Shown: positions 16,677 to 57,899 of the stretch, piece by piece
Numbering within the stretch: position 1 is the first letter of the stretch
Layout: the number at the start of each line of letters is the position of its first letter
NCBI GenBank assembly: GCA_043806595.1
Contig: JAZDGU010000029.1
Span: 2,548-66,547, forward strand
Direction: 5' to 3'
Origin: Candidatus Micrarchaeota archaeon
Lineage (GTDB): Archaea > Micrarchaeota > Micrarchaeia > Norongarragalinales > SBBD01
DNA length: 64,000 nt
Translations under genes and position numbers: made by a program
The notes under the pieces: generated by a model
Told to the model about the DNA's origin: nothing
Seen by the model: only the letters and a program-made list of their open reading frames with translations
Databases searched by the model: none

Positions 16677-16697
16677 TGCAAGGGGCTAGAGGGCTTC

Positions 16698-17937: not shown

Positions 17938-18035
17938 AGGGTTCCTGAAGAAGACGGTCACAAAATTCGGCACCGGCGCCAAAGTCGACTGCCCTAAAGA
18001 ATATCTCGGAAAACCAGTTTACCTAGTGATCATCG

Positions 18036-19361: not shown

Positions 19362-19536
19362 CCAGCTAAACAAATACGGATAATTTACTTAAGTCGAAGC
19401 GTTTTGCGGGGACGGGTTCGGTTGCAAGTACGCCGACAAGTTCGTGAATCCTTTGCCGCATTCTGGCATCCGTTTTTCGAACGGTCTTGAGCGCCTTTGG
19501 GCTGAATTCTACGGAAAACACGCCAAGCACCCTGAA

Positions 19537-19737: not shown

Positions 19738-19901
19738 CGAACTTATATGGATTTGGCCATATTTAATGCCGTCGTTTATGCAAATTTAAGCGCATAATTT
19801 GCTATCGTGCCGAATCCGGCACAGTGACGCCAATATTTTTTTCGGAGTCCAACCCACGGCCAGCAGCTCGGCCAGGGCGCCTGATGACTCACTCCCTTGC
19901 G

Positions 19902-33756: not shown

Positions 33757-34395
33757 CTACTGGCACCGCATTGTTGAAATCATGTAGTCGACGAGGTCCA
33801 AGTCCGGCACCAGCGGCTCGGAAATTGCGGCCACCAGCACAACCCAGTTTGAGGGGCACTGCAGGTACGCCTGCCTGATGAAGATCCTCTCGTTCCCGTC
33901 AACGGGATTCTGCATGGCCATGGAGAGCACGTAAACCGTCCTGCCGTCCTGCGGGTATGATGCGAGCGACGCGTTCTCCTCGGCCGCTGCCTCGCCAATC
34001 TTGACATCGCTCAGCTCGCCGGATTCAACCACGCGCACGTCAATGATTTCCGCGGAATACGGCGGGTGGTATGCGGAGAACCTCACGCGCACTGAAGGGA
34101 AGGGGTCGAGGTCGGCGAGGTAGCCCTGCAGATACCGCAGGGAGAAGCTGTAGTTCTGGTCGAAGTATTCCAGCGAACGCGGGTCGTACTCGGCGGCAAG
34201 CAGAGAGACTTGGGCGGCCCTCGCGGCCCCCGCGTCGGGCTTGATGAACGGGAGCGTGGAGACGAATTTCGGCGGCTGGGGCGCGAGGAAGAGAAAATAC
34301 GCGCCAACCGCGAGAGCCACAATTAGGATGATGGTCCAGAACGCGTTCGCGGACGGCGACACCCTCTTTTCCCTTGCCACGAATATTCCCTCCAC
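33757..34395 (-). CDS. hypothetical N-terminally anchored extracytoplasmic protein (212 aa)
   Basis: Single N-terminal TM helix (FWTIILIVALAVGAYFLFLA) then a soluble domain. Likely operon with 33367-33753. Confidence 0.5.
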   Translation of the reverse strand: MEGIFVAREKRVSPSANAFWTIILIVALAVGAYFLFLAPQPPKFVSTLPFIKPDAGAARAAQVSLLAAEYDPRSLEYFDQNYSFSLRYLQGYLADLDPFPSVRVRFSAYHPPYSAEIIDVRVVESGELSDVKIGEAAAEENASLASYPQDGRTVYVLSMAMQNPVDGNERIFIRQAYLQCPSNWVVLVAAISEPLVPDLDLVDYMISTMRCQ

Positions 34396-34761: not shown

Positions 34762-34771
34762 GGTTTTAAAT
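34762..34771 (-). promoter_or_regulatory. TATA-like box (TTTAAAACC on minus strand) about 35 nt upstream of acyP; near-leaderless
   Basis: GGTTTTAAAT in a 41-bp divergent intergenic region. It also overlaps the nominal ATG of the plus-strand 34770 ORF, so that ORF probably starts at a downstream Met. Confidence 0.3.
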
Positions 34772-35621
34772 GAAGAAACGCATGGCAGTCTTTCATAGAA
34801 TATTGCGGGCGATTCCACATATGGTTAGGCGGGCTTCAGGCACTCAAGGGATTTCTGGAATCCGGAGGAATCGGGTGGAGGGACCGTTCATCCACGATGT
34901 AATCCCGTGGATTCACTCACCGGACATCACCAATCCGGAGCTATCTCCAAGGAAAAGGCGGGATTTAATTCGCAAGCGATTCAGCGAGATGGTGAAAAAT
35001 CCGGAATCAATGAGGCGGTTAATCATACATGCACACGAGACCGCAGGGGCTCCGCCGTTGTCACCGGCAAGGCTAGGCATGCTACGGCACGCATTGCAGG
35101 TAGATTCAGCAGAATTCCGGTCCGTTGCAGAGGCGCACGTAAGAAAAGCGATTGGAAACGACGAAGAAGGCAGGGTGCATCTGGCAAGAATTGATTCAGC
35201 AGTCGGACTCTTGCGACAGTATGCGAGGGCGGGCACAAACCCGTTCCTCCAGGCAATAAACCAAGACCTGGGAAGGGAAGGACCGAGAACGCAGCTGGCC
35301 AGGAGGGACAGCGGTTCCAGACTGGTGAGTCTGATAGAAAGCATGGCCATCGGAAGGGCTCGCGGGAGAACCACCGACAGGAACGCCGTGGCCGGATCCG
35401 GACGGCTTGAGCAGACGTTGGCGGAGGTTTATCGCGGAACGTCCGCGGAAACCATTCTTAGAGTCATCCGCAACCTTCCCCGGCGCAAGCGCGAGCAGGC
35501 GCAGACCGTGAATATTCCAGTCGGGGTGCTTAACCAACTGCTCCAGCAAGGGGGACCCGCAGGGCATGCAGAACCCCGCGAGGAAGAAGGGGAGGAAGGA
35601 GGCCACGAGGGACATCATTAG
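34770..35621 (+). CDS. hypothetical Arg-rich protein (283 aa), atypical codon usage
   Basis: Longest ORF in a region of lower GC and low GC3; antisense ORFs look spurious. No motif recognised. Start may be 34782 or 34821. Confidence 0.4.
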   Translation: MKKRMAVFHRILRAIPHMVRRASGTQGISGIRRNRVEGPFIHDVIPWIHSPDITNPELSPRKRRDLIRKRFSEMVKNPESMRRLIIHAHETAGAPPLSPARLGMLRHALQVDSAEFRSVAEAHVRKAIGNDEEGRVHLARIDSAVGLLRQYARAGTNPFLQAINQDLGREGPRTQLARRDSGSRLVSLIESMAIGRARGRTTDRNAVAGSGRLEQTLAEVYRGTSAETILRVIRNLPRRKREQAQTVNIPVGVLNQLLQQGGPAGHAEPREEEGEEGGHEGHH

Positions 35622-35624
35622 AAG

Positions 35625-36242
35625 GTGCATCAAATGCCTCGCGAAGAACGCGCAAAACCGGAAAAAATCGACATCGAACTCCCGCCGTTGGCAAGAAGGC
35701 CGGGCAGGTGGAAAAGGTTCAAGTTACGGCTCGGCATCGGGCGCGAGAAATTCGCCCGGGAACAGCTGTATGAGCTCAGCGACAACCCCCACCTCTTCGA
35801 GCAGCTGCATCGGCAGGTTCTTGAGAGGGCGGCGCAAAGACAGGGCCTCGAAAGTGCCGGCCACGGCAGGATGACCGCGGAGGTAATCTCGGGAAGGGAA
35901 AAAAGCTTCGGAAGGATGTCTGATATTCTGAGGAAAAACCCCGAGACAGCGGACCTTGCATGGCTTTTTACCCAGCTGGGGTATACGGTGGAAAGGGATG
36001 TACGTTCTGAAGGCGTGCAGAGCTCGCGCTTCCAAAGCGTATTAAGGCAGGAGCTAAACAACCCGAACAGCGCACATGGCCGAAACCTAGTACGACTGTT
36101 TGCCAAGGGAATGCGCAGCGACGGCTCACGGACCAGCATAGAGGTTGACGCCGCAGCCTCCGCCCTCCTTCAATTGTACAAGAACAGGAACCTGCTCCGG
36201 CAGAGGATGGAGGATCTGGACGCAATCCACCGCACGGCCTGA
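35625..36242 (+). CDS. hypothetical Arg-rich protein (205 aa), atypical codon usage
   Basis: 3 nt after the previous ORF. Convergent with the giant gene (24-nt gap). Confidence 0.4.
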   Translation: MHQMPREERAKPEKIDIELPPLARRPGRWKRFKLRLGIGREKFAREQLYELSDNPHLFEQLHRQVLERAAQRQGLESAGHGRMTAEVISGREKSFGRMSDILRKNPETADLAWLFTQLGYTVERDVRSEGVQSSRFQSVLRQELNNPNSAHGRNLVRLFAKGMRSDGSRTSIEVDAAASALLQLYKNRNLLRQRMEDLDAIHRTA

Positions 36243-36266
36243 AGAGCGCGTAAGACCCCTGGGGCC

Positions 36267-39200
36267 TCAGCCTGAAGTCGCGGCCTGGGCGCGCAACGCC
36301 TCGTTGAGAAACTCGAGCGCCTTCCGGTAGCCGGCGTCATTGCCCTGGTCGACGAGCTTTTCCGCCTCCTCGATGGACTTGACGACCTCCGGCGGGCACT
36401 GGTAACCGTCGCACCACTCCTTATAGCGCGCCAACAGGTTCGTCGCGGCTTCCGACAATGGAACAGGCGTCTGCGGGCCAGACTGCTCGTCCGACACCGG
36501 CACCCCAGCCCCCTCCAGCGCCGAATACCCGGGCAGTGCCGAAGACGTGACCACTGCTTCCGTGACGCTGAACGAGTCCGTCTGGACAGGCTTGGATGCC
36601 GCGAAGAAGGACTCCGCAATCGCCTGGGTGGCCTGCCTGCCGTTGAAAGCGGTAAGCAAATCATACTGGGGGACTCCGGCATACTCCGGGCCCTTGATGA
36701 AGTAGAAGCAGAACGGCTTCGTCCTCGGGCACAAGGCATTGGCGTCGACGCGGTTGAGGCAGACGGTCTTGCTTGCCTCGTCGCGCGTGCAAATCTCCTT
36801 GACCGACGTGACCGGGTCAGGGGCGTTGTCCAAGGTGGGGTTGTTGAAGACCACGACGTGGTTGCCGTAGCGGTAGTCCAACTCGGCGCGCACGGGCCTC
36901 AGGTCCGCGTAGGTGAGTATTGGTCCGAGAACGGCGACGATGGTCCCAACCAGCCGCGGGATCTTTGCGGGGGCGAACATGGACTTGAACCTGCTGCCGG
37001 CGTTCGTGAACTGCTTGAAGAAGCCTCCCGTGGTCTTCGCCGCCTTCGCGACGTCGTCGCCCTCGCTCTTGAGGACGTTCCGAGTGATGTCGATTATCGG
37101 TTTCTCGCTCTTGACGTTTCCTCCGGAAATCAGGGTCCGAGTTCTCGATAAAAGCCGGTCAGTCACTGTCGCTCCCCTTCCGAATTTTACATCGGCATCT
37201 GGAATTGAGGACATCGCGTTTTGCACCGTTCCCAGCCTAGGATACTTCGCGGTCATTTTGCGCAGGAAATCGTCGTACTGATCGGCAGGCACTATCGATT
37301 CCGCCTTGAGTATTCCCTTGAAGCTGAACGGCTTTCGGGTTCCTGTTGCGACATCCCCCCTTTGCCTCAAGTGCTCAAGCACGTGATCAAGTGTCTCTTC
37401 CTTCAAATATTGTGCCTCACTACTAATTCCAGCAGGCCATGGACCAGAGTGTAGGAAATTCCCGTTTCTAGGACCCTTGGCGGCAGTAAGCGAATCAACA
37501 ACATCGGCCCAGAGAGATGTCGAACCCGCCTTGGTGGATCTTGTGCCTCTCAACGAGGTCACTATCTGCTCCATGCGGCGCTGATACAAGGCGTTATCTA
37601 CGGGATTAAGCGACTTCTGCAGGGTGTCGTCGGCGAGCTTGTCGAAGAGTTCCTCCATCGCGTCGCGCCCGAGCATGTCGGACATGGCATCCATTATTAC
37701 TGGGTCGTTGGGTGGAATCTTCACCTTCACCAGTTCGTGGAAATCGGCGGCAGCCTTGCCCTTGGCGACAAGTTTCGTGATTGTCCTTGCGCTGAGGTCG
37801 CCGCCGAGGCCGAGGCGTTCTGCTTCCTTGATGCCATTGCGGAGGCCGATCGAGGCGTCGTAAGCCGAGCCCATCGATAGCCCGTAGTAGCGCGTCCCCT
37901 GTTCGGCCATCCACGCCGTGCTCCCCCAAGGCAGAATCGACCTGAACGCCTTCCCCGCTGGCAGCACAAGGTCGGGCTTGGCAACGACCTTGTCGTCTCC
38001 CTTGACGTACTCCACTCCCGAGAAAACCGCGCTGAAAGCCGTGAACGTGAGGAACTCGCTGGCAAATCTTGCGCCCAGGAACTTGGCGCTGAACGCCTGC
38101 CCGATGTTCCTCATAGTAGCGGCGCTGACGCCTTCGGCCGGCTTGAGGCCGAAGTTGGGGATGTACGCGGTAAACGTGTTAAGCAGGTAGTATGACGCGC
38201 CCTGCGCGCAGGCGTTCGCGGCGTCGCACGTGTTTGCGTCCTTGAATACGGCGTTTCCGACGTTGACGACGGAAGTCGAGCCGCACAATGCTAGCGTCGA
38301 AGCGAAGCCCATGACGGTTTCCTTGAGAGCGTAAGATACGCCGAAGGTCGCCATGATACCCTGGATGACCAAGTTTGGAGCGCTCGCGGCCATCACCGAA
38401 CCGGTGACCGCGCCCAACCGCTTGGTGCAGTAGCCTGCGTCGCTGTAGGACGGCGAATAGGAGAACAGGTTGGGACTGCTGCCATACAAGGCGGAGATCA
38501 AGCCCTGGGCGTTCCGCTCGTCCAACTCGCTGTTTCCGCCGCGGTAGGAACCAAAGTAAATCAGCTTGAACTTGTCGAATATGCTCTTGGCTTCCGCGGC
38601 GTCATTCGGCTTGCGGAGCTCGAAATAGGGCAGCTTGGTGTTCGCCTTGACCTGCTCGCGTCCGACGATGATTTGCGGGTCCTCGGCGGTAAGCAGGCCG
38701 GCGTTCGCGAGCGTCTCCTCGCACGCCTTGAACTGCGTCGGGTCGGCGGGATTGACGGCCATCTCTATTGACGCGGAGCGCAGCCACGCCTTCTTGTCCG
38801 GGAAGGAATTGGGGCTCTTGCAGAGGCCGAGGCGCGCAGTCACGATGTAGATGCCGCACGAGGATATGCCGCCCGAGGTGTCCCACTTGAAGTCTTCTAC
38901 GTACTTCTCGCCAGAAGCGTCGCGGAGCTCGCCGAGGCCCTCGTCAACGGACTTCTGCAGCTCGTTGAAAGAGACGCGCGTGTTCGCGCTCTGCACGATG
39001 ATGCTTTTATAGAAGCCGTTGCGGTTGTGGACGACGAGCCTCGGCTCGGACGGGTTGCAGAACGTCGAGATTTCCTTGGGGTATTTCTCGTCGAAGTAGA
39101 ACTTGAGGACGAACTCCTGCAGCTTCGCACCGAAGCCCTTGTAGGCGTCCTGCAGCTGTTCGCCGTTGCCCGTGCAGAAGTTCGTCTGGCACTGCATCGT

Positions 39201-42200
39201 CCCACCGGCGAGCGCGTCCAGCTTGCCCTGACTCTGGGCTCCAGTAGCGCCGGCATCGGACGCCAACAGCGCATCCGCGGCGTTTTCAGGAGTCCCGGCG
39301 CCGTCGGCAGGCGTCTCGAAGTAGAGGAAAACCCCGCCCGCGGTCTGGGCCGCGCCGCCTCCTGCGGGCTCGCCGGTGCCGCCCTCCTGCGCGGCCTTCT
39401 TGGCATCGTCCGTCGAGGCGAGCTCGGGCACCGGGACGGTGAGCGTCTGCTGTGGCACGAGGTCGCCCATGGGCGAGGACGGGAAGAACTCCTTGAGGGT
39501 TTCGTCGAGCGGCTTGCCGCCGACACCGACAATGACGGCGACCCTGCGCTGTTCGGGCTTGGTGGAAATCGCGCCGACGGAACGGATCTCGATGAAGCCT
39601 TCACCGGCCTTTTCCGCGGTGCATTCCGCGATGTAGCCGGTTCCGGCCTTCAGCGCCTGCGGGATGTCGCAGGATGCAAGAATGCTTCCGTCGCGGGATT
39701 TCGCGGCGTAGGAGAGCGAGAGGTCCTCGTCGTAGTTGTTCGTCATGGAGAGCCAGCGCTTGTGGCCGACGTCCTTGAAGACGAGCACCTGCGGCTCGCC
39801 GTTCTTGGCGTTGGTCTGGCCCTGCTGGTAGTTGACGTAGAAGCCGTTGAGCGCCGCGGACAGCTGCTTGCCGAGGTTGCCGAGGCACTTGCCGGTGTCC
39901 ACGAACGAAATCCTGATGGGCGCATCCTTGGCGGGCACCGTGCCCTGCCTTACCACGCCGAAGACGATCAGCTTGCCTTCCACGGACTGTTCCTCGAACG
40001 CCTCGGGCTTGAGGCAGCCGTACTCGTCGAGGAACTGCTCGGGGACGCCGACCTCGACCTCGAAACTCTGCCTCGGGCACGGGTCTTCGCCGGCGAGGTT
40101 GCGCTCGTTGACCCGCATGGAGACCAATTCCTTCAGCCAGGCGCCCTTCTTGGTGATGCTTTTCACCGCGTGGTCGAGGTCGCCCTTGGTAGAGACTATT
40201 GAGGGTCCCTCGAGCCATCCCTGCGGGCCGGAAAGCCGGAGGCCGGAGTTGAGCGGCGTGTTGATTTCCAACCGCACTTCCCTGTTGGAACTTCCCTCGT
40301 TCTTGACGCACAGCAGTTGCGACTGCGTGAGGTGGGAGTTCTCGTTGTTGAAAGTGAAGGTCAGGTCGCCCTCGAGAAGTATCGGGAAGGCCTCGTCGGT
40401 AATCAGCAGCATGCTGCCCTTCGTCTGCTTCTCGCACAGCACGAAGACGGTCTCCTCCTTCTTGGGGACGAGGACCTCGACGGGCGCGGCAGGGGCCTCC
40501 TGGCCGTCAGCAGCTGGTGCTGCAGCAGAGGTCAATATCCGGAAGGAAGGCGGGAAGATGACCTTGCGCACCTGCTTGAGCCCGTATTTCCGCCCGTTGC
40601 GGGAAATCTGGACGGAGAGGCAGGCTCCGTTGAAGTCGGTCTCGCGCGACACCTTGTCGACTTCCGAGGCGGTTGCGGGAAGGGTGTAGGTCACTTCCTC
40701 GCTGAAGATGCCCTTGATGCGGAAGCGTTCCTTGGGCTGGGCCATGTCCGTGGGGGCAATGCGCAACACGAAGAGCGTGTTGTCGGGGATGGTGAACTCG
40801 AGGGGGTCGGAGCCGAAGCTCTCTTCAGTGGTGCGCTTGGACATGATGCGCGTGGCATCGGCCTCGAAGCGGTCCAGCGTCTGTGGATCGGACAGGGTGA
40901 GGGTCACGGGGTTGGAAAGCCGTACTGATTCCATGGGCGAGTCCTTCCAGTAGTCGGTCTTGAGGCCGAGGAGGCTCTCCTGCGGCACGGACACCCCGAC
41001 GTCGAAAGGCAGGGTGAACTCGAAGTCCATGCCCTGCAGCATGGCGAGCTCGGGGTCGACGGTTGTGAAGGTTATTGGCTGGTTGGCGGCAAGCAGGACG
41101 TCGAACGAGGAGTCTTTCCTTTGTGTCTGGGGGGTGAAGCCGGCGGGGAAGGTCGCCTCGTAGCTCGTCGTGGCGATGCGGTTCTGGACGAGGTTCGACT
41201 CGCGGGGGAAGTGCCAGACGGAAGGCGCGGGGAAGGCGACGGTGAAGCTCTCCTGCCCGCGCACGGATTCGGAAGCCTTGAGGATCCTGCGGTCCATGGT
41301 GAGCATCGAGCCTGCGTGAACCTCGAGCTTGGCCGTGCCCTGCGGGGTCTCGGCGGAGGAGGACGCGCCTTCCGCGAGCATCCTGGCTCCGTTGGCGAAC
41401 TCGACGAGCTTGGCGTCGGAGGTCGGCACGTTCCTCACATTGACGTTGGGTGCCAGTGAGAGGCTGAAGCCAGCTGGAATCTCCTTCTCGGAGCCGTAGA
41501 CGCCGAACTCGGCTGGTCCGAGGGACATCTGCGTGTACGGAAGGACGTCAACGGAATAGCTGGAGTCGGGGAGCTTGAGGCCCTTGCGCGCGACACCGTA
41601 GAACGAGAGCTGGCTGCGGTCGTTGGAGATGGAGCTGACGGTGAAGCCGTCCTGCGCGACGCTCACCGAGACCTGCTCGTCCTTCTGGATTCGGAACATC
41701 ACGCGGAACGGCAGCATCATGCTGAGCCTGCCGTAGGGGTCCTGCTGGGCGAAAGGCGAGGGCATGCGGACGGCGCTGCCCGCGGGTATTGTTATCTTCT
41801 TGAAGTCGTTGGAGTCCGTGGAAATTACTGCGTCTGCGGGCAGGGAAATCGTCGTGCCGCTGCGGAACTGGAGCGCCTTGTTGCCGTTGAACTCGTCGCG
41901 CTTGACGCGCACGAACTCCTGCGGCAGGAATACGGCCTCCACGGGGAAGTAGACCTCGTAGGCGTCGCGGGAGGAGACGAAAGGCGTCAGCTGGATGCGG
42001 AAGGGCGTGTTGGAGGGAAGTGAAGCACGGCGCTGGCCGATGTCCCGCTGGCGCGTAAGCCGTATGCTTGCGGGGATGGTGATGTCGAAGTCCTCGACGG
42101 TCGCGGTCTGGAGGGAGCCCTCGCGCGTGAACTCGGTCTCGGGCTCGAAGTCCATGAACAGGCTGACGGGGAAGCGGAGCTCCCACGCGGTGTCGGCCAT

Positions 42201-45200
42201 CGGCTGCTGGTAGGGCTCGTAGCGGTTGGAGTAGCGCTGGTTGCTTGCGACTGCTATCTTGCGCGCCCACGCCGGCGGCACCTGGAAGAACGCGCCCGCC
42301 GGGACTATCGCGGCGAGCGAGCCCGCGGAGGTCTGCAGGGAGAATATGTAGGACGCCTGGTAGGGCGACTGCGCGAGATTCGAGAGGTCGCCGACCTGCG
42401 CGCCCTGCTCGAAGAGCATCGAGTCGCCGCTCGGCAGCTCGACGTACTCCGTTCCGTCGGGGTTCTCCTTGTGCAGGGTGCCCTTGGGGAACTGGAAGAC
42501 GAGCTCGACGGGAAGCGCGAGCCGCACTCCGTTCTTGACCTCGCCGACGTCGGGCAGGGCCTCGGTGGCGCTCACCTCGATTTCGTCGGACGAGCACGGC
42601 GACCCTCCGGCAGCCGTAGTCGCCTTGTAGGTGCCTGCCGCGGGGTAGCTGCATTTGATTGAACAGGAGCCTGTGGTGCCGGTGCAGTCCTTCGCGGTGA
42701 CGGTGCGACCGTTGCCGCAGTTGACTGGAAAGACGTTGGGGGCCTTGGGCAGGTCGTAGTAGCTTATCGTGAGGAGCGTGTTCTGGTTGCGGGAGAGCGT
42801 GGTCGGGTCCGCGGTTATGACGCACTGGGGCTCGGCCTCTGACAGCGGGTCCTCGTCTGGCTTGAGCACGTCGACCTGCACGGCACTGCATTGCGTGCCG
42901 GAGGCGGCTGCCTGGACGGCGTATGTGCCGTCCTGCTCGTAGTAGCACTTGGCCTGGCATGTTCCGGTGGTGCCGCTGCAGCCGGCGGCGTTCGCTGTCC
43001 TGCCGTTGCCGCAGTTGATGAGGAGCGCGTTGGGGGCGCGGGCGAGGTTGTAGTAGTTCGCCGTCACCATCGTGAACTCGCCTTCCTTTATCCTCGAGGG
43101 GTCGATGGTGAGCGCGCAGGAGGGGCGGGATGCCTGAACCTCCACGTATGCCGTCGTACATTCGACGCCGCCGGAAACCGCCAAAACCGTGAACTCGCCT
43201 GCCCGGGGATACCGGCATTTCGCCGAGCACGAGCCGGACTCGCCGGAGCATGAGACCGCGGAAACCTTCCTTCCGTTGCCGCACTCGATTTCGAAGGAGT
43301 TCGGGGAAGGCGAGAAGTCGGAGAAGGCGACGGTAACCGAGGATTCCTGGCCCTCGTCGAGGAGGGAAGGTTCGACGGTGAGGGCGCAGGACGGTTCGGG
43401 CAATGGCGTGGGGGTGACGGTGCCGCCCGAGCCGACGTCGCTGCAGCTGTCCGAGGAAGTGGCCGAATACGTCAGGGAGAGCTGGCGTTTGGAGGAGACG
43501 CCTTGCGTCGTTGCGATAAGCTTGAGCGTCGCGTTGCGCTCGTCCGGCTCGGTTTCGCAGGGGTCGACGGGCATCGCCTTGGCATAGACCCGAAACTCCG
43601 CTGAGCCGCCGCTGGGGACCACCACGGACAGGGGCTCGACGGAGAAAATCCTCGGGAGCGTGTTCTCCTGGTTGACGAGCAGCGGGTAAGGCGCGTCGTT
43701 GGTGACGGTTATCGACTGCATGTCGGACCTGACCTTCGGGGGCTGGAGGGCGAACTGCAGGGACTCGCTGGAGACCTGCCAGAGCGTGCCAAGCTCCTGC
43801 TGGACGAAAGAGGTCTTGACGGTGAACGGCACATATTCCTCCTGAGAGCTTCCGCCGAGCCTGGCGGAAATCCTGATGCGGCCGTTTATCTTCTCGGAGA
43901 CCGTCGAGGCGCGTTCGGCGATCTGGAGGACGGCATCGTCGATTTCGGCGGTCAGGCTCACGGTGCCGGACTGGCGCGCCTTCAACCGCAAGGAGAAGGT
44001 GTCGACGTTGATGCGGGTGTACTTTGGAATCTGCGAGAACTGCAGGGACATGGTCACGGGCACACTGTCCTCGAGGAGGTTGTTCACGGAGAACGCCTGC
44101 TGCTGGGGGTCGCGGGACTCGACGGCGAGGGCAAGGGCAGTTGAGTCGACTTCGACGAGCCTGACTGCGGAAACCAGGAGGGTGCCGCGCTTGGACTTGA
44201 AGCCCTCGGCGTCAATCTTGAAGGATACGTACCCCACGCTGACCGGCCTGATGCCCTCCGCGCGGTACGACGCGCTGCCGTCCCTGCCCTCGGTGTAGAC
44301 GCCCTCAACCTGCGCGCCCCTCAAGGCGTCCGAGCCGTCCCCGAGAACAACTGAAGCGTCCTTGACCGGGAGTCCGAGGGAGTCCGAGACCTTGAACGTT
44401 ACCACGCCGTCGGCAAGCGCCTGCAGCGACTTGGGCGAGTAGGAGACCTTCAGGTCGGGCTTGGTGCCGACGACGCGCGCCGCGAGATTGCGGGTCACCG
44501 TCGACTCGCCGAAGCGCGCCTGCAGCGTCAACGGGACGTCGTTTGAGAGGCGCTGAGCGCGGATTGAGAAGGTGCCGGCTGCGTTGTCATCGGAAGTGGT
44601 AAGCGATATCGCCTGCTCGTCGCCCTTGCGCGCACGCGCGCGGCTGTCACCGCTCACGCCCTCCTCGAGGGAAAGCGAGAGGTCGTCCGCGGGCGAGGTC
44701 AGCTCTATGACCGCGCCGCGTGGGGCCGCTAGCGTGAACTTGAGGGAGAACGTTTCGCCGGACTCCGCGGCGTAGTTGTCCGAGACCGTGCCGCCCCTGC
44801 CCTCGAAGTGAGACTCGAGGCAGACCTCGCCCTCGCAGATGCCGCCGAAGGAGAGGGGAAGCGACACGGAATTGGTTGCCGCGGAGAGGGCGTCGGGCCC
44901 GGCGACGGAGTCGACGGGGTCGCGGAGGATCTCGCGCGAGGTGTAGAACGCGGCGCGGTATTGGACGTTGACCGAGGCGCGGGAAAGCGGCCTGGTGCGT
45001 ATCTGAACGGACACCTCACGGGTGCCCTCGAAGGGCTGGAAGGTGAAGTCCGCGAACTTGTAGCCTTGCACGTCCTCGCCCGCCAGAAACAGGGCGGCGG
45101 CATTCCCGGCCGGGGTCGGCGTCGGGGTCGCGGTGACAGTCGCGGTAGGCTCCTCGCGCGAATACTCGGTGCCCTTGCGGACCACCGCGCTGCCGGAACC

Positions 45201-47240
45201 GTATCCGACTATTTCCGCGGTCTCGCTCTCGAGGGAGGAGTCCTCGTTCCCGATGCGGATGTGAGCCTGTATGCGGGAGACGGAGACCGGCGGCTTGGAC
45301 AGGACGAATCGCAAATTATAGACCGTCGAGGGGGAAAGAGAGGAGGCCTTGTTCCCGGTGAGGTCGTATGCCCCCTGGAACACGAGCTTTGCCCCCGAGA
45401 GCACGCCGACGGGCATCAGCTCGAACTCCTGCTTGTTGTTGACCCCGGGCTTGACCTCGAATTCCGAGGAAAGGAGGTCGTCGTAACCCTCGGCCTCGAC
45501 CCTGGCGGCATAGAAGCCCTCGAGGATCTTGAGGGAACACGCTCCCTTCGAGGTGGTGCAGGAGCCAGTTGCGGCAAACTCGCCCATCGAGGGCGAAAAC
45601 TCGACCCGGGCGCCGTCGATGGTCTTGTTCGTGAAATGGTCGCGGACCTTGACGGAGAGCTTGCCCGGCGCGGGCATGAGTAAGACGTGAAGGAGGTTGA
45701 CGTCCTCGGACTCGCCCGTTCCTTCGACAGTGAGGAGGACGGGCAGGCTGGAGCCGTTCCTTCCCGCGGCGCTCGCAACCGCGATGACCTCGTCGAGGGG
45801 CAGGCCGTCAAATCCCGTCGTGCCGTCCGCGCTCGTGTATTTCTCCGGGACCCCGGTCGGAAGGCCGTCCAAGTAGGAAAGGGATACGTATGCGGAGGGC
45901 ACGAACTCGCCGTTCTTGTCGGTGACCTCGACGACGGCCTTCGCCGAATTGTCCTTGCCGGCCTCCTCCAGCCTGACGGAATACGATTTGCCCTTCTCTG
46001 CGTCCATGATCCTGGCGGGAAGGAAGCCGTACTTGTAGACCGTGACGTAATATGAAGACCTTTCGAGGTCCTTGAAGACGGCGACGCCGTCCGAGGGTAT
46101 TTCCTCGCTTATCTTGGCGCCTTGCGGCTCATGCAGCCAGACCGAGGGATTGGAAAGCGAGCGGTTGTCGGAATCGAAGACGGCTACCGTAATCGAGCGG
46201 AGCTGTTCCTTTGAAACCTTCCTAAGAACCGCGTCGATGCCGGTCTCGGCCTGGACCTCGGTCTCCGCGGAAAGGAAGGCAGGATATCCTGCCGCCTTCA
46301 CGGAGACGTATATGGCCGTTCCTAGCTTGATTTCCTGCGAGGGCACGCCGCCGTCCGCGCCCGACTTGAGGTTCCGGAAGATCGTCTTGCCGGTGCCGGC
46401 CTCGCTTATTTCGATTGTGGCGTTCCCAATGCCCTCGCGGGTGTCCGAGTCGGTGACGCGGATGATAACGCGGCCGTTGACCGCGGACTGCTTCGGCGTC
46501 AGGCCGAAGGGCGGCAGGGTCTTGTCGCTTGAATCGACACGCACGTCGCGCGACTCGTCGTTGAAGCCCTCGGCCTGGACGACGACCTTGTAGGCGGTGT
46601 TCTGCTGGACGTCGAACGTGACAGTAGCCCCGGTCTTGGAATCGGCGATGGGAACGTATGTAGCGGTGTCGAAGAGCCAGAAGGTCGCGGACGAGGGCGG
46701 GGGCTCGACTGAAAGCGCGAGCGAAACAGTGGTCCTTGCGGGTTCGGGCGCGAGCCTGACGGTCACGAGGTTGTTCTCCGACTTCTTGCCGACGCTAACC
46801 CTCGAGCTGGCGCCCGAGTCGAAGGTGAGGGTGGAGCCGTCGAAGCCCGCGGCGGTGAGGGTGAGCTCGGCGCCTACGGGGGCCCCGGAGAAGTAGGCGA
46901 CGCCGTCGGAGCCCGTGGTGGCCTCCATGCGCTTCATGCCGTAGGCGTTCTCGGGGTCGGCGAGGAACACCCTCGCGTCTGACACCGGCAGGCCGTCGGA
47001 TGCGAGCAGCGTGACGGTGACGTCCGCGGTCTTGGGCTCGAATGCCTTCGTGCCGCCGAGCAGAAGGAAGGCGGCCCCGCCGAAAATCAGGAGAAGGATG
47101 AGCAGGAACACGGGCAGCGAGGGAAGGCCCTTCTCCTCGAGCCAGTCCGCGGCGTCCTTGAGGGGGAGGCCCTTGTCCGCGCACCATTCGAGAAAGCCCT
47201 GCCACTTCTCATTGACGGATTCGAAGAATTCCTCGAGCAT
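36267..47240 (-). CDS. giant membrane-anchored surface protein (3657 aa) with many beta-rich Ig/CarbopepD-reg-like repeats, three Cys-rich modules and a roughly 1000-aa non-repetitive C-terminal region
   Basis: Uninterrupted 10,974-nt ORF with host-like GC3. N-terminal signal-anchor LPSLPVFLLILLLIFGGAAFLLLGG. Start set at MLEEFF (47240) because the first in-frame codon (47417) would overlap the upstream Zn-ribbon ORF. Confidence 0.75.
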   Translation of the reverse strand: MLEEFFESVNEKWQGFLEWCADKGLPLKDAADWLEEKGLPSLPVFLLILLLIFGGAAFLLLGGTKAFEPKTADVTVTLLASDGLPVSDARVFLADPENAYGMKRMEATTGSDGVAYFSGAPVGAELTLTAAGFDGSTLTFDSGASSRVSVGKKSENNLVTVRLAPEPARTTVSLALSVEPPPSSATFWLFDTATYVPIADSKTGATVTFDVQQNTAYKVVVQAEGFNDESRDVRVDSSDKTLPPFGLTPKQSAVNGRVIIRVTDSDTREGIGNATIEISEAGTGKTIFRNLKSGADGGVPSQEIKLGTAIYVSVKAAGYPAFLSAETEVQAETGIDAVLRKVSKEQLRSITVAVFDSDNRSLSNPSVWLHEPQGAKISEEIPSDGVAVFKDLERSSYYVTVYKYGFLPARIMDAEKGKSYSVRLEEAGKDNSAKAVVEVTDKNGEFVPSAYVSLSYLDGLPTGVPEKYTSADGTTGFDGLPLDEVIAVASAAGRNGSSLPVLLTVEGTGESEDVNLLHVLLMPAPGKLSVKVRDHFTNKTIDGARVEFSPSMGEFAATGSCTTSKGACSLKILEGFYAARVEAEGYDDLLSSEFEVKPGVNNKQEFELMPVGVLSGAKLVFQGAYDLTGNKASSLSPSTVYNLRFVLSKPPVSVSRIQAHIRIGNEDSSLESETAEIVGYGSGSAVVRKGTEYSREEPTATVTATPTPTPAGNAAALFLAGEDVQGYKFADFTFQPFEGTREVSVQIRTRPLSRASVNVQYRAAFYTSREILRDPVDSVAGPDALSAATNSVSLPLSFGGICEGEVCLESHFEGRGGTVSDNYAAESGETFSLKFTLAAPRGAVIELTSPADDLSLSLEEGVSGDSRARARKGDEQAISLTTSDDNAAGTFSIRAQRLSNDVPLTLQARFGESTVTRNLAARVVGTKPDLKVSYSPKSLQALADGVVTFKVSDSLGLPVKDASVVLGDGSDALRGAQVEGVYTEGRDGSASYRAEGIRPVSVGYVSFKIDAEGFKSKRGTLLVSAVRLVEVDSTALALAVESRDPQQQAFSVNNLLEDSVPVTMSLQFSQIPKYTRINVDTFSLRLKARQSGTVSLTAEIDDAVLQIAERASTVSEKINGRIRISARLGGSSQEEYVPFTVKTSFVQQELGTLWQVSSESLQFALQPPKVRSDMQSITVTNDAPYPLLVNQENTLPRIFSVEPLSVVVPSGGSAEFRVYAKAMPVDPCETEPDERNATLKLIATTQGVSSKRQLSLTYSATSSDSCSDVGSGGTVTPTPLPEPSCALTVEPSLLDEGQESSVTVAFSDFSPSPNSFEIECGNGRKVSAVSCSGESGSCSAKCRYPRAGEFTVLAVSGGVECTTAYVEVQASRPSCALTIDPSRIKEGEFTMVTANYYNLARAPNALLINCGNGRTANAAGCSGTTGTCQAKCYYEQDGTYAVQAAASGTQCSAVQVDVLKPDEDPLSEAEPQCVITADPTTLSRNQNTLLTISYYDLPKAPNVFPVNCGNGRTVTAKDCTGTTGSCSIKCSYPAAGTYKATTAAGGSPCSSDEIEVSATEALPDVGEVKNGVRLALPVELVFQFPKGTLHKENPDGTEYVELPSGDSMLFEQGAQVGDLSNLAQSPYQASYIFSLQTSAGSLAAIVPAGAFFQVPPAWARKIAVASNQRYSNRYEPYQQPMADTAWELRFPVSLFMDFEPETEFTREGSLQTATVEDFDITIPASIRLTRQRDIGQRRASLPSNTPFRIQLTPFVSSRDAYEVYFPVEAVFLPQEFVRVKRDEFNGNKALQFRSGTTISLPADAVISTDSNDFKKITIPAGSAVRMPSPFAQQDPYGRLSMMLPFRVMFRIQKDEQVSVSVAQDGFTVSSISNDRSQLSFYGVARKGLKLPDSSYSVDVLPYTQMSLGPAEFGVYGSEKEIPAGFSLSLAPNVNVRNVPTSDAKLVEFANGARMLAEGASSSAETPQGTAKLEVHAGSMLTMDRRILKASESVRGQESFTVAFPAPSVWHFPRESNLVQNRIATTSYEATFPAGFTPQTQRKDSSFDVLLAANQPITFTTVDPELAMLQGMDFEFTLPFDVGVSVPQESLLGLKTDYWKDSPMESVRLSNPVTLTLSDPQTLDRFEADATRIMSKRTTEESFGSDPLEFTIPDNTLFVLRIAPTDMAQPKERFRIKGIFSEEVTYTLPATASEVDKVSRETDFNGACLSVQISRNGRKYGLKQVRKVIFPPSFRILTSAAAPAADGQEAPAAPVEVLVPKKEETVFVLCEKQTKGSMLLITDEAFPILLEGDLTFTFNNENSHLTQSQLLCVKNEGSSNREVRLEINTPLNSGLRLSGPQGWLEGPSIVSTKGDLDHAVKSITKKGAWLKELVSMRVNERNLAGEDPCPRQSFEVEVGVPEQFLDEYGCLKPEAFEEQSVEGKLIVFGVVRQGTVPAKDAPIRISFVDTGKCLGNLGKQLSAALNGFYVNYQQGQTNAKNGEPQVLVFKDVGHKRWLSMTNNYDEDLSLSYAAKSRDGSILASCDIPQALKAGTGYIAECTAEKAGEGFIEIRSVGAISTKPEQRRVAVIVGVGGKPLDETLKEFFPSSPMGDLVPQQTLTVPVPELASTDDAKKAAQEGGTGEPAGGGAAQTAGGVFLYFETPADGAGTPENAADALLASDAGATGAQSQGKLDALAGGTMQCQTNFCTGNGEQLQDAYKGFGAKLQEFVLKFYFDEKYPKEISTFCNPSEPRLVVHNRNGFYKSIIVQSANTRVSFNELQKSVDEGLGELRDASGEKYVEDFKWDTSGGISSCGIYIVTARLGLCKSPNSFPDKKAWLRSASIEMAVNPADPTQFKACEETLANAGLLTAEDPQIIVGREQVKANTKLPYFELRKPNDAAEAKSIFDKFKLIYFGSYRGGNSELDERNAQGLISALYGSSPNLFSYSPSYSDAGYCTKRLGAVTGSVMAASAPNLVIQGIMATFGVSYALKETVMGFASTLALCGSTSVVNVGNAVFKDANTCDAANACAQGASYYLLNTFTAYIPNFGLKPAEGVSAATMRNIGQAFSAKFLGARFASEFLTFTAFSAVFSGVEYVKGDDKVVAKPDLVLPAGKAFRSILPWGSTAWMAEQGTRYYGLSMGSAYDASIGLRNGIKEAERLGLGGDLSARTITKLVAKGKAAADFHELVKVKIPPNDPVIMDAMSDMLGRDAMEELFDKLADDTLQKSLNPVDNALYQRRMEQIVTSLRGTRSTKAGSTSLWADVVDSLTAAKGPRNGNFLHSGPWPAGISSEAQYLKEETLDHVLEHLRQRGDVATGTRKPFSFKGILKAESIVPADQYDDFLRKMTAKYPRLGTVQNAMSSIPDADVKFGRGATVTDRLLSRTRTLISGGNVKSEKPIIDITRNVLKSEGDDVAKAAKTTGGFFKQFTNAGSRFKSMFAPAKIPRLVGTIVAVLGPILTYADLRPVRAELDYRYGNHVVVFNNPTLDNAPDPVTSVKEICTRDEASKTVCLNRVDANALCPRTKPFCFYFIKGPEYAGVPQYDLLTAFNGRQATQAIAESFFAASKPVQTDSFSVTEAVVTSSALPGYSALEGAGVPVSDEQSGPQTPVPLSEAATNLLARYKEWCDGYQCPPEVVKSIEEAEKLVDQGNDAGYRKALEFLNEALRAQAATSG
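42570..43400 (-). repeat. three tandem Cys-rich modules of about 85-95 aa (about 270 nt each) inside the giant gene
   Basis: Protein repeats SCALTVEPS...IECGNGRKVSAVSCSGESGSCSAKCRYPRAGEF, SCALTIDPS...INCGNGRTANAAGCSGTTGTCQAKCYYEQDGTY and CVITADPT...VNCGNGRTVTAKDCTGTTGSCSIKCSYPAAGTY. Consensus C..(T/I).P......I.CGNGR....C.G..G.C..KC.Y...G.Y. Confidence 0.6.
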
Positions 47241-47320
47241 GCGGATTATCGGAAAGATAGGGCGAAAACACTTATTTAAATACCATCGTAGCGGCCAAAT
47301 GGAAAAAATTCGCGTCCTGC

Positions 47321-47656
47321 TCAGCGGACCCTCCGCTGGAGAGGCAGGACCGAACCGCACTTCCTGCAGACCTTCTCCTTGTGCTTCCAGTTCAGTTCGA
47401 AGTCCGTGCCTCCGCACTCGGGGCAGGCGCGTATCTCGCTCTTGTGGAAGTCCATCCAGCCCTCCTTGCCGTCGCGGCCGGCGAAGGACTGGTGGGAGAA
47501 GGCGACGCGCTCGCGGCGGTCGGTCAGCTGGGGCTTGTCGTCATCGAACTTCTTCTTCTCGACGGCGGGCTTGACCTTGCGGCTGGAGCACCGCGGGCAG
47601 ATGACCGCATCCTCGGCCTCCCAGTGCAGCGAACAATTGTCGCAGGCGTATTTCAT
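47321..47656 (-). CDS. double zinc-ribbon protein (111 aa)
   Basis: CDNC...CPRC and CPEC...CRKC pairs. 80 nt upstream of the giant gene on the same strand. Confidence 0.5.
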   Translation of the reverse strand: MKYACDNCSLHWEAEDAVICPRCSSRKVKPAVEKKKFDDDKPQLTDRRERVAFSHQSFAGRDGKEGWMDFHKSEIRACPECGGTDFELNWKHKEKVCRKCGSVLPLQRRVR

Positions 47657-53005: not shown

Positions 53006-56000
53006 TCAGAGCCGCTCGCGCAGCCTCCTGAGGGCCTCGGCGGCGGAAAACCGGGGAGCCGCCTTCACACCATCCTTCGCATTGCCCGCTTGTACGACGC
53101 CCCCGGGCGGGTTTTCGGCCCGCCGGGCGGAAATGTACACCGCGGCGCCGACAATCAATGCCAGGAGGACGAACGCCAGCCACGAATATTGCATGTAGTC
53201 GAACCCCGCACGTGCCTGCTTCTCCTTCAACAGCCGCTCGTATTCGCGCCGTATCGCGTCCTCGTCGTCGGGGTCGATTCCCATGGACTGCAGGTTCCGG
53301 ATGACCTTGAGCCGGTCCTCCGCGGAAACGTCCCCGAGGTTCAGCCTCGTCCAAACGGCTTCAATCTCGGGAGGGATATATCCGCCGTTCCAGTCCGCCC
53401 AGTCGAAGGTGGGCTCGGGGGTGGGGGTGCCGTCGGGGCCACTGGTGCCGTTGCCGCCGCCCTCGCCGTTTCCGTTACCGTTCCCGTCGGGGCCCCCGCC
53501 GGGCGGCGTTGCAGTCGGGGTTGGAGCAGCGGGGGGAGGGGTGGGCGTGGGCAGGTCGGGCGGTTCGATGATTGAGCCGGTGCCGAGGACGAATGTGAAC
53601 GCGCCCGTGCGGTTCACCGTCTCGTTCCAAGCCTCGGCGTAGGGCCCGAGGTAGTATGTGAACGTGTGCGGCGTGGACAAAACCATGAGCCCCGAATTGT
53701 CCATTTTCTCGCGGAGGGTCAGGGGGGCAGTGCCGTTCGCGAGGAGGATGACGTTCTCGACAGGCCTGCCTGAGACGTTGTAGACCGCGGCGTAGCCGGT
53801 AGCCGGCGATCCGTTGGAATACCTGAACCTCGCCTCGACGTCCCAGTCGAACCCAATCCATGCCGCGGGGTCCAGCGAATAGCGGACCGACGCGGAGCGG
53901 ATGTTGACGAAAGCCATGCTGGACTGGAACGCGAGCCGCGCGTCCAGCGCGTTTGAGGTGAAGGAGGGGCTGCGGGCGGTGATGCAGGGGCCCGAAGGGC
54001 AATCAATGGCGGAGGAGTGGTTGAAGAAAGTGGTGTTCGGGAAGACGTTCGAGCCGGTGCCCCCCCATTCCGACACTCCGTAGGCGTTGCTCCTGAACGC
54101 GTTGCTCTGGAAGACGTTCCGGTTGGACGAGCTGAGCGATGTCCCCCTCTGGGCGCCGGAGACGGAATTCAGCGAGAACAGGCTGTCCGCCGACCACACG
54201 GAAGAGATGCCGGTGCCGCCCTTCATGGCGAAGGCGTTGTTCGAGAACGTGTTGAAGCGGGAGTGGTCCGTGGAAAGCCCCACCGTCGGATCCGCGTAGT
54301 TGGCGTTGGTCGCAGTGAACCTGCAGTTGCTTATGCGCACGCCCTTCCTGCCGGAGACGTTCGCGCCGATCCGCGGAAACGACACGGAATAGCCGGCGCA
54401 GTCAAGGGACGCGTTGTCCGCGGCGAACTCGAAGCAAGGGGCGTTGCCGGGGGCCGTCACGCTCCGTGCGAGGGCGTAATTGCCGGCGGAAGAGAAAGTT
54501 GTGCATGACGAAACCTGCGAGGCGTTGGGCGGCGGGGGCGGCGCCACCGGAGTCCCGGTGCCCCAGGAGAAATTGAATATGCCGGAGCGGTTGACGGTGG
54601 TGTTCCACTGCTCGGTCCTGCCGCCGAGGGTGAAGTCGAAGCGGTGCGGAGTCTGGTTGGTCACATACGCCCAGCTCACACTGCAGCTCGTCCACCGGTA
54701 GGTCTTCTGCCTGAGGCGGAACGCCGCGGTGCCGTTGGCTCCGGTCTGGGCGCCTCCGGCTGCAGCGCCCTGCAGGTCGTGGACCAGCGCGGCGGCGTCA
54801 ACCGGCATGCCTGTAGTGGAGTTCGAAAGGTTTGCGACCGCGTGCCAGTCGACGTAGATGTACACCGGCGGGTTGCCGCCGTACGGGGCGCATAGGCACG
54901 GAATTGATACCTTGGGCTCGCCGGTCAAGGCGTTGAATATCGTAATGTTGGAGGTGAGGGTAGAACTGACGTCTATCCTGTTGTTGAGGAAAGAACAGTT
55001 GTTGATATCAATGGTGGTCAAAGCTAGCACTATGGCCTTCCCGGCGTTCGCGAACGAAGAGCGGGAAATCCGGCCGGTACTGCCCCAGTCATAGCCCGAA
55101 AGCGCATAGGAGTCGTAGTCCGTGAAATCCGAAAAGGTGTTCAGGTCGATGGTGACCGACGACACTCTAGAGACATGCAAGCCGTTCTGCCCGCCCGTGA
55201 AATGATTCCCCGTAAGATTGACGCCAGAGGACCGGTAGATAAGGCCGCTATTTCTTCCTCCGGAAACGCGGTTGCCCACGAACGCGAGCGCGTTGATGTT
55301 GCTGAAATTCAGGCCCGTTGTCTGCGATTTCAGCGAGAGGTTGTTCGCGGTCGCAGTCAAGCCCGTGACGTTGACGAAGTCGAGCGCGTAGGAGTATGTT
55401 ATGTTGGCTGAGGCAGAGAGGTTGCAGTTCGATACCGAGACGTTGCGCCGGTTGTTGGCCCTCACACCGACGTTGTAGTATTCGGCTTTGAATCCCGCGC
55501 AGTCGAGATGGACGTTGTCCGCGGTGATGGTGAAGCACGTCCCGTAATCGGAGGACACGTCGCGCACGAGGACGTAGGAGCCCGGCGCGCCCAACGTCCC
55601 GCAAGCATACACTGGGATGCAGGGCGGGTTCTGCTGAGTGCAGTCCGGGGATTCGAGGACGTTGACTGCTGCCACGCCCGAAACCGCACCGAGGCGCGCC
55701 GTGACCGTGCCATTCGAGGGGGTAGCGCCCGCGGTGAAGAGGCCGGATTGGGTGACTGAGCCGGTGGTGGAGGACCACTCAAGCGGGGGGCAGGCGACGT
55801 TCGACCCGCATTCGTTCGTGCAGGTGGCGGTGAACTGCTGGCTCGCGTTGACGAGGACGTTCGCGGGATCGGGGCTAACGGAAATCCGCGTGATCGCCGG
55901 CTGGGATCCGCCGACGCCGGTGAAACCGTAGTAATTCGTCATGACCAGCGCCCCTCCGGCGATCGCGGCACCCGCTCCATCAGAGGGATTGGAGAGCTGC

Positions 56001-57079: not shown

Positions 57080-57224
57080 AAGTGAACTACTGCGGCGTAT
57101 TAAAAAACGATGCCTGCGGCGAGGGGTCCGGACACCGTCCGGCAGATGCCCCGCGCGCCCGAAACCCCGTCTCCCGCCGCGAACGGTTTTTAAGGGATTC
57201 CCCGCTAATGCACGCATGTTCCTC

Positions 57225-57899
57225 TTCGACAACGTGCTCAAGCTGCTGGCGAAGGTCTTCCGGGTGGTGAACCGGCGGAGGTCGGTGGCCATCACGTTCC
57301 TCGTCGGGTCGCCGCTCACAGTCTACTGGTTCCGGACGATATGGCTGGAGCAGCCGTTCACGATGCAGGTGGTGGCGGTGTACAGCCTCGTCTTCCTGCC
57401 CTTCCTGCTCTACAAGGCGCTGCTGTACTTCTTCCTTTCCCTCTTCGATACCGTCGTGATATTCTTCGCGGACTACACGAAAAGCTACGACGTCGACTTC
57501 GAGAAGGTTCGCGCGCGCGTCGCCAAGATACTCGTCGAGAAGAACGTAAAGTACCAGTCGCTCGACAGCATGGCTCTCGGCGCGGAAAGGGGCCTCCTTG
57601 AACGACTGCGCGGCTGGCTCCACATAAAATACCCGCTCATCTTCGTCTGCGCCGACGACCCGTTCGTTGTAATAAAGATATTCAAGTCCCTCGGCTCGCC
57701 GCGCATCCAGGACCTCAAGCACCAGATTACGCACAAGGAGGCCATCAGCGTCAAGATATTCTTCGAGGAGGAACCGAGGGCGCGCGTGCTCGCCAAGCTG
57801 ATAATGAACTCGCTGGAGGTGCTCAACACCGACCAGAGGGAGGCCGAGCCCCCCGGAATTGCAGTGCAGGCGATCCAACTCTCCGACGAGGGCAGGTGA
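57225..57899 (+). CDS. hypothetical membrane protein, paralogue A (224 aa), unrecognised family
   Basis: N-terminal TM helices, then cytosolic motif EKVRARVAKILVEKNVKYQSLDSMALGAERGLL...PLIFVCADDPFVVIK. Start at first Met after the divergent intergenic region. Confidence 0.5.
   Translation, partial: FDNVLKLLAKVFRVVNRRRSVAITFLVGSPLTVYWFRTIWLEQPFTMQVVAVYSLVFLPFLLYKALLYFFLSLFDTVVIFFADYTKSYDVDFEKVRARVAKILVEKNVKYQSLDSMALGAERGLLERLRGWLHIKYPLIFVCADDPFVVIKIFKSLGSPRIQDLKHQITHKEAISVKIFFEEEPRARVLAKLIMNSLEVLNTDQREAEPPGIAVQAIQLSDEGR

Follow-up and report, generated by a model that had tools for sequence, protein, structure and literature searches.

The minus strand of a 64,000-nucleotide stretch of a Candidatus Micrarchaeota archaeon genome (GenBank assembly GCA_043806595.1, contig JAZDGU010000029.1, forward-strand positions 2,548 to 66,547; this whole stretch is called the window below) encodes a giant protein that ends in a conserved, non-repetitive, unclassified module and that almost completely avoids N-glycosylation sequons. 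Giant surface proteins are the usual suspects when it is asked how DPANN archaea fasten onto other cells and trade material with them, and to our knowledge a working end has been defined for almost none of these proteins. Giant surface proteins that bear a distal head are a kind already known from DPANN or other archaea; what is new here is an unclassified family of heads, its unusual composition, and its avoidance of glycosylation. We tentatively favor, at a probability a little short of even, a reading of the module as an extracellular, disulfide-stabilized, glycan-free distal head with a latent helical core that interacts with a membrane or cell envelope and with Cys-rich domains acting as recognition elements.

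On this reading, a giant type II protein would be held in place by an N-terminal transmembrane (TM) helix and would extend an ectodomain of about 2,600 residues, at the distal end of which sits the family-specific module. The whole module would lie outside the cell, held together by disulfides and without N-glycans. The helices, being weakly hydrophobic and too polar to serve as stop-transfer anchors, would be buried within a helical bundle and, once exposed, could interact with a lipid membrane or envelope, that of a partner or host cell being the most plausible target, with two Cys-rich domains supplying recognition. Were the helices to engage the envelope of a partner cell, the giant protein would thereby tether or bridge two cells. 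The end module is now delimited as a rare and conserved unit with clear boundaries, cysteines and motifs, and a candidate membrane-interacting core, and its near-total avoidance of sequons beside a sequon-rich neighbor is an unusual signature. If the module were only a structural cap, it would amount to one more orphan domain family in uncultured archaea.

Gene, family, and anatomy of the module

A single minus-strand open reading frame (ORF) covers positions 36267 to 47417 in the ORF list and its translation, and its last 1,077 residues are encoded by positions 36270 to 39500, just where the original prediction, made from this DNA alone, had put an unplaced terminal region. The true start is the ATG at position 47240, and an identical protein of 3,657 amino acids (aa) is present in the representative library (P0001). 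The GTG-extended start (47241 to 47417) is spurious; this extension overlaps a conserved upstream Zn-ribbon gene (47327 to 47653, minus strand, about 110 aa) whose product is 60% identical to that of L002:7586-7924. Protein residues are numbered here from the ATG, and "ORF residues" from the start of the longer frame. The organism is archaeal, as had been proposed: the window is a piece of archaeal chromosome carrying SecY, eIF2-gamma, Cbf5, the PolD small subunit, SufBD, and carbamoyl-phosphate synthase.

HMMER, run exhaustively over 1.84 billion representative proteins with the 1,077-residue region as query, returned 10 proteins, namely the query itself, five giants of 2,843 to 3,453 aa (E values of 1e-92 to 6e-34), and four fragments; the named records among them come from groundwater Micrarchaeota genomes. 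Scanning one genome per species across 185,579 species yielded a single related locus, L001, in a groundwater "Candidatus Micrarchaeota" genome, where a 3,313-aa ORF (L001:3023-12961) is colinear with the window protein along its whole length (BLASTP identities of 38% over 1,289 aa and 32% over 1,543 aa). Only three contig-edge fragments, of which a JGI metagenome supplied one and Hainich groundwater assemblies the other two, were recovered when a clade-2 profile of one conserved domain (domain C, below) was run against 241 million metagenome records. Full-length relatives share gene order and align end to end, and the short members are pieces of giant genes. One of these, P0009 (1,056 aa), is the 3' part of a giant gene broken by a frame change whose other part is a 1,852-aa ORF (GCA_002763345.1, L008:5-8688); the frame change may reflect a faulty assembly or a genuine break in the gene. 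As all relatives are giants or their fragments, the module is confined to the C terminus of a rare family of orthologous giants. We found no description of this family in the literature, and we leave it unnamed; it comprises P0001 to P0006 and the L001 orthologue. Its members share the C-terminal module, with the CQTNFC, CGIY, and ANAxLL motifs, the hydrophobic segment with CxxxNxC, RPVxAxLDYRxxNH with four Cys, and the CxxxxCP tail, as well as whole-length colinearity that includes the N-terminal motif and TM helix, the motif being present in every member that retains its N terminus. The C-terminal region is 20 to 31% identical to its relatives and keeps most Cys, and no paralogue of it lies within the window; judged from the alignment, it is truly coding and has been under selection.

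Six parts can be told apart in the family alignment of the last ~980 residues, namely domain A, an uncharged helical segment, variable helices, a hydrophobic helix, domain C, and a tail (Table 1). Per-segment statistics and pooled counts are based on 8 sequences, and the AlphaFold2 model of the module on a 10-sequence alignment.

Table 1. Parts of the giant protein and their positions in the window.
Feature	Residues	Window positions	Strand	Basis
Whole giant gene, 3,657 aa plus stop codon (36267-36269)		36267..47240	-	ORF and translation
Conserved N-terminal ~43 aa (inferred cytoplasmic) and only strong TM helix (44-62)		47055..47240	-	
Pro/Ala/Gly/Thr low-complexity linker before C-terminal module	~2580-2681	39198..39503	-	
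Domain A, Cys-rich alpha/beta	2682-2938	38427..39197	-	
Charge-depleted Gly/Ala/Ser-rich segment, about four helices	2939-3100	37941..38426	-	
Conserved [FW]G[ST]xA[FYW]xxDY motif segment	3101-3125	37866..37940	-	Alignment; 30% mean pairwise identity
Variable helical region, Cys-free and sequon-free	3126-3425	36966..37865	-	
Short hydrophobic helix with basic N-flank	3426-3447	36900..36965	-	
Domain C, beta-rich, four conserved Cys, motif RPVxAxLDYRxxNH	3448-3560	36561..36899	-	
Linker and three-helix tail, conserved CxxxxCP	3561-3657	36270..36560	-	

Domain A is the most conserved part, with a mean pairwise identity of 35%, seven conserved Cys, and the motifs CQTNFC, SI[VI]xQxAN, CGIY...C, CxETxANAxLL, IGPYKE, and PYEDxxYC. 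Its invariants are Q, N, CG.Y, N..LL, G, and Y, among them the polar positions Q69, N72, Y117, N165, and Y218. The charge-depleted segment that follows (~160 aa) is 36% Gly, Ala, and Ser, with only ~5% Lys and Arg and ~5% Asp and Glu; over about 150 alignment columns the charged fraction is 0.01 to 0.10 and the mean hydropathy is positive, reaching +1.3 as a family average. It carries conserved GESL and IDAG motifs and three further conserved Cys (LC and a CxxxNxC loop), and AlphaFold predicts it to be helical, at low confidence. The length of uncharged runs is not specific to this segment, as beta-rich and linker regions also have long ones. The variable helical region is far less conserved (17% mean pairwise identity, 213 to 307 aa long, no Cys in any of the 8 sequences) and is modeled as entirely helical at a predicted local distance difference test (pLDDT) score below 50; its helices are significantly amphipathic only in the clade of the window protein (z of 2.4 to 2.8) and not in the other clade, and we did not use this property as evidence. 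In domain C the near-invariant positions (alignment A2) are P776, V777, L781, D782, H788, C811, C821, C831, C838, Y853, N860, and S871. The extreme C terminus, domain C and the tail, is conserved across the family, and the variable part is internal.

Both Cys clusters quoted in the original prediction are present, at ORF residues 3045-3070 in the loop of the charge-depleted segment and at ORF residues 3543-3573 in domain C. A single sequence cannot show conservation. The family alignment did not bear out the accompanying claim of many conserved-looking Gly, Asp, and Asn positions: the invariants are mostly Cys, joined here and there by Gln, Asn, Gly, Tyr, Leu, Asp, His, or Pro.

BLAST of the protein against itself in chunks confined repeats to ORF residues 1341-1618, which are three Cys-rich copies of about 90 aa, plus one weak N-terminal match. 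The C-terminal region is therefore non-repetitive, as had been stated, and domains A and C have unrelated profiles, so that a diverged repeat of one domain is ruled out by an hhalign probability of 0.4%. ORF residues 1620-2640 are likewise without sequence-level repeats, which weakens the proposal that a last third free of repeats stands apart from a repeat stalk: the last third is as described, but the picture of the stalk as a repeat array was overstated. The Cys-rich copies (window ~42560-43400, minus strand, ORF 1340-1620) are 35 to 49% identical to each other and are apparently missing from the L001 orthologue, where the tblastx match skips the stretch; they resemble a stalk insert of variable copy number. 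The low-complexity linker that joins stalk and module is variable and aligns poorly among relatives.

At the other end of the protein, the N-terminal TM helix has a Kyte-Doolittle value of 2.86 (2.5 to 2.8 in relatives with an intact N terminus) and an approximate insertion free energy of -3.9 to -4.9, the latter from a crude biological scale with approximate values, with Kyte-Doolittle being crude as well. No other segment of the giant protein comes near this hydrophobicity, and the C-terminal module sits opposite the only strong membrane anchor, in agreement with the distal position first suggested for it. The segment before the helix contains a duplicated motif, EKWxxFLxWxDEKG[IL]P ... LEEKG[IL]P, strongly conserved in members retaining the N terminus; it matches nothing in Pfam, and nowhere else in the window does an EEKG[IL]P-type motif recur. 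Such conservation suggests a cytoplasmic partner or a targeting signal. Matches to CarboxypepD_reg, Big_1, and PEGA fall in the first ~400 residues only, and we infer that the ~2,600-residue region after the TM helix, which opens with CarboxypepD_reg/Ig-like beta-sandwich domains, forms the ectodomain.

Sequon avoidance, hydrophobic helices, and topology

N-x-S/T sequons are nearly absent across the whole family, with 0 to 5 observed per protein where 15 to 25 are expected. The window protein has 5 (expected, 19.7±3.9), all within residues 273-1236; P0002 has 4 (21 expected), P0003 has 5 (15), P0004 has 1 (23), P0005 has 0 (24), P0006 has 2 (18), and the L001 orthologue has 0 (25). Pooled over 8 members, the C-terminal module contains 1 sequon against ~41 expected and is depleted in every part, including residues 3101-3425, which span the variable helical region (0 versus 13.7±3.2). 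The C terminus of the window protein has none where 5.9 are expected, as happens in 0.25% of shuffles. Depletion is specific to the motif, as the reverse motif, Q-x-S/T, D-x-S/T, and N-x-A/G show nothing comparable. Sequons are not depleted in cytoplasmic neighbors or other cytoplasmic proteins of the same genomes, and in the adjacent 1,437-aa NosD/PQQ beta-helix surface protein (window 53006-57319, minus strand) they are enriched, at 32 versus 17.1±3.7. A comparable NosD/PKD/CARDB giant lies upstream of the orthologue in L009. The simplest reading of these counts is that the whole giant protein, variable helical region included, would face the glycosylating external side and has probably been selected to stay unglycosylated. 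This reading favors a type II topology with everything outside. The conserved Cys are spread over domains A and C, the tail, and the loop of the hydrophobic segment, a pattern expected for extracellular disulfides.

The only segments besides the N-terminal TM helix that approach TM character are the hydrophobic helices of the C-terminal module, and they do so marginally on these crude scales, with Kyte-Doolittle values of 1.2 to 2.15 and insertion energies of +1.5 to +6. The last hydrophobic helix scores 1.57 in the window protein, and its counterparts in relatives do not exceed ~1.5. The original prediction of a globular head was right that the protein ends in a conserved module distinct from the stalk, but it overlooked the ~160-aa charge-depleted helical segment and the second hydrophobic helix, and these features change the likely mechanism.

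One alternative is that the hydrophobic segment, crossing an odd number of times, and the last helix are TM helices in the producer's own membrane and form a second anchor. The variable helical region would then be cytoplasmic, domain C and the tail would return to the outside, and the ectodomain would be a loop held at both ends. This arrangement would broadly resemble that of the SPEARE proteins, a precedent with a TM helix near one end and a conserved intracellular part (PMC6642349). Several features fit a second anchor: the segment has four consecutive, largely uncharged helices, with Kyte-Doolittle peaks that reach 2.06 to 2.15 in P0002 and P0005; loops bearing Lys or Arg alternate with a Cys-rich loop nearly free of both; the variable helical region is without Cys; and in 10 of 10 members the last helix is flanked by basic sequence on its N-terminal side (net charge, +1 to +5) and by neutral sequence (~0) on its C-terminal side, as the positive-inside rule would have it. 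We nevertheless consider a second anchor unlikely. Every C-terminal helix falls far from the approximate -4 to -5 of the N-terminal TM helix, and several members have no C-terminal segment that reaches a Kyte-Doolittle value of 1.6. The putatively cytoplasmic helical region is as free of sequons as the ectodomain, whereas cytoplasmic proteins are not depleted, and four apparent helices make an even number of passes, in conflict with the orientation implied by the last helix.

A further alternative, also rather unlikely in our estimate but a little less so, is that the module is a purely structural soluble cap, a disulfide-stabilized helical domain whose hydrophobic helices form its core and have no membrane activity. 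Such a cap could serve in oligomerization, in forming a lattice or canopy, or in binding other proteins where the stalk ends. Conserved motifs and acidic residues within the hydrophobic helices (GESL and IDAG) suggest specific packing over generic lipid contact; the hydrophobicity of these helices is marginal, no membrane-protein family matched, and the tail is a generic three-helix bundle like modules of giant bacterial adhesins. On the other side, about 150 aligned columns with 1 to 10% charged residues would be unusual for a soluble extracellular domain, and the conserved basic flank beside the last hydrophobic helix would have no obvious role. Results at the structural level do not separate a soluble cap from the membrane-interacting head that we favor.

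Those structural results are as follows. Neither single-sequence nor profile searches of Pfam, NCBIfam, PHROGs, and PDB sequences returned anything above noise for the C-terminal region, just as the first inspection by eye had failed to place it in a family. The top PDB profile matches, apolipoprotein A-I/E and coiled coils at E values of 0.5 to 1.6, were rejected as compositional; insignificant matches of these two kinds were all that the variable helical region gave in the PDB. The AlphaFold2 model of the 984-aa module has a mean pLDDT of 45.7, made up of an alpha/beta core in domain A (50 to 74), ~500 helical residues (below 50), a beta-rich domain C (43 to 70), and the three-helix tail (72 to 92); domain A modeled alone reached a pLDDT of 52.8 and a predicted template modeling score of 0.52. 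Fold searches returned nothing specific: Foldseek found no match in the PDB with an E value of ≤0.001, and a fold assignment is impossible. In these low-confidence models the secondary structure is that of a distinct terminal module, and further beta-sandwich stalk repeats, the outcome that would have told against a separate head, do not appear.

It had also been suggested that the stalk carries a peptidase, lectin, or toxin, and functional heads on giant adhesins are a general precedent for a catalytic or toxic head of this kind, to which a glycosidase may be added. The strong conservation of domain A, with its five invariant polar residues and invariant CG.Y, would be in keeping with such a head. 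We regard this explanation as very improbable: sequence, motif, and fold searches gave no match; the family alignment of domain A contains no invariant His, and hence no Cys-His dyad was identified; and the extreme C terminus is conserved, with no conserved immunity-like gene after the giant gene.

A bolder version of the membrane-interacting head, which we think doubtful, would make the giant protein a glycan-free "harpoon," anchored by its N terminus in a Micrarchaeota-like cell, whose far tip is a latent module of the membrane-insertion or fusion-like type that enters the membrane of a host archaeon and seeds an intercellular bridge or pore. The tip would consist of the Gly/Ala-rich uncharged helices, the helices found to be amphipathic in some family members, and the basic-flanked hydrophobic helix, and the bridge or pore could be a route by which DPANN cells obtain lipids and metabolites. 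Sequons would be avoided because the filament must pass an S-layer or enter a bilayer without bulky glycans.

Several observations weigh against the extracellular, membrane-interacting head. No homologue of known function emerged from the searches above to back any activity. Mean pLDDT values of 45.7 and 52.8 leave the helical-bundle picture tentative, and the hydrophobicity scales are crude. By the positive-inside rule, the basic flank that precedes the last hydrophobic helix would suit a TM helix running from inside to outside; such a helix would place the variable helical region in the cytoplasm, contrary to the sequon argument. Avoidance of sequons is itself an indirect proxy for exposure to the outside. 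Finally, one report (PMC12892359) suggests that some Micrarchaeota may depend little on a host, which makes a host membrane as the target an assumption.

Genomic surroundings

The giant gene of this family stands among housekeeping genes, in a synteny shared with the L001 and P0002 loci. At P0002 the order is T2SSE, carbamoyl-phosphate synthase small and large subunits, epimerase, ATP-cone, Zn-ribbon, giant gene, acylphosphatase, S10, and EF1A, and the conserved neighborhood consists of carbamoyl-phosphate synthase, epimerase, and Zn-ribbon genes upstream and an acylphosphatase gene and a gene for a protein of ~205 to 212 aa downstream. In the window this last protein has 212 aa (33757-34395, minus strand), an N-terminal hydrophobic TM-like segment, and no Pfam family; it is conserved in L001 (13028-13666) and L002 (20207-20824, 36% identity) and could be a partner of the giant protein. 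In relatives, two genes on the same strand (227 and 267 aa) separate the giant stop codon from the acylphosphatase gene; neither has a detectable homologue in the window. Positions 34819-36266 of the window instead hold two plus-strand Arg-rich ORFs (34770-35621 and 35625-36242) without Pfam matches, and this stretch may be a replaced or inserted segment.

Farther away, the window contains an IS66-family transposase (18036-19361, plus strand) inside a patch of low GC content (16000-20000; 0.535 to 0.56 versus ~0.62 elsewhere) and a 1,262-aa Upf1-like helicase (AAA_11/AAA_12; 9864-13652, plus strand) with a C-terminal REase_MTES_1575 endonuclease domain.

Relation to known systems

Archaeal S-layer and surface glycoproteins, such as the neighboring NosD/PQQ protein, are likewise large envelope proteins with beta-rich domains. 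In contrast to the almost sequon-free giant family, they are typically N-glycosylated. A PGF-CTERM-type, archaeosortase-sorted S-layer glycoprotein is ruled out by the hydrophilic three-helix-bundle C terminus and by sequon depletion, and no terminal sorting signal of that type, a motif followed by a TM helix and a basic tail, is present at the C terminus of the giant protein. A polymorphic toxin of the CdiA or Rhs kind, in which a hypervariable toxin domain at the extreme C terminus follows a conserved pre-toxin motif and a cognate immunity gene lies downstream, was also rejected: the extreme C terminus is conserved, the variable part is internal, no toxin family matched, and the genes immediately downstream are not conserved as a pair.

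RTX adhesins (LapA, SiiE, and MpIBP) and Staphylococcus aureus Ebh follow the same logic as the window protein, being anchored close to the cell at the N terminus, extended by a long run of beta-sandwiches, and completed by a functional C-terminal region free of repeats, and Ebh-type modules resemble its three-helix tail only generically. Unlike RTX adhesins, which use the type I secretion system (T1SS), the window protein has no tandem extender repeats beyond its three Cys-rich units, and neither RTX repeats nor a T1SS signal was detected in it. No family member matches the Ca-binding nonapeptide-repeat (GGxGxD) families; one has only an insignificant match (E = 0.46) to the Pfam model of the RTX N-terminal domain. 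Secretion and anchoring of the window protein are archaeal, and we know of no description of a charge-free hydrophobic helical segment in the head of an RTX- or Ebh-type adhesin.

Pore-forming colicins, the T domain of diphtheria toxin, and the Bcl-2 family, inside-out insertion domains typified by a bundle of ~10 helices packed about a single hydrophobic hairpin, are presumably alike in segment order and hydrophobicity, with weakly hydrophobic, uncharged helices beside helical sequence that here is amphipathic in part of the family. At such marginal insertion energies, the hydrophobic segments could stay soluble until triggered, as in proteins of the colicin and T-domain type. The hydrophobic part differs in being ~160 aa rather than ~40 aa long and in carrying conserved Cys and acidic residues, and no match to these proteins was found in Pfam, PDB sequences, or the fold search, where a pLDDT below 50 left the comparison of folds powerless. 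Class I viral fusion glycoproteins, which have a fusion peptide, HR1/HR2 heptad repeats that assemble into a trimeric six-helix bundle, and a C-terminal TM anchor, would share the linear order of a large receptor-side ectodomain, a Gly/Ala-rich hydrophobic segment, long helices, and a hydrophobic helix near the C terminus. The window protein departs from them in being anchored at the opposite, N-terminal end and in having ~210 residues with conserved Cys after the last helix.

The SPEARE proteins of Nanohaloarchaeota are giant DPANN proteins (3,300 to 8,500 aa), mostly extracytoplasmic and with a TM anchor near one end, that have been proposed to contact the host and possibly to form pores (Hamm et al. 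2019, PMC6642349). Their defining features are domains of the serine-protease, laminin-G/adhesion, and type III restriction-enzyme kinds (PMC6642349); none of these was detected when the whole window protein was searched with Pfam and NCBIfam, and there is no sequence relationship between the two. Giant, mostly outside the cell, and carrying a TM helix near one end, the SPEARE proteins are nonetheless the nearest conceptual relatives of the protein described here.

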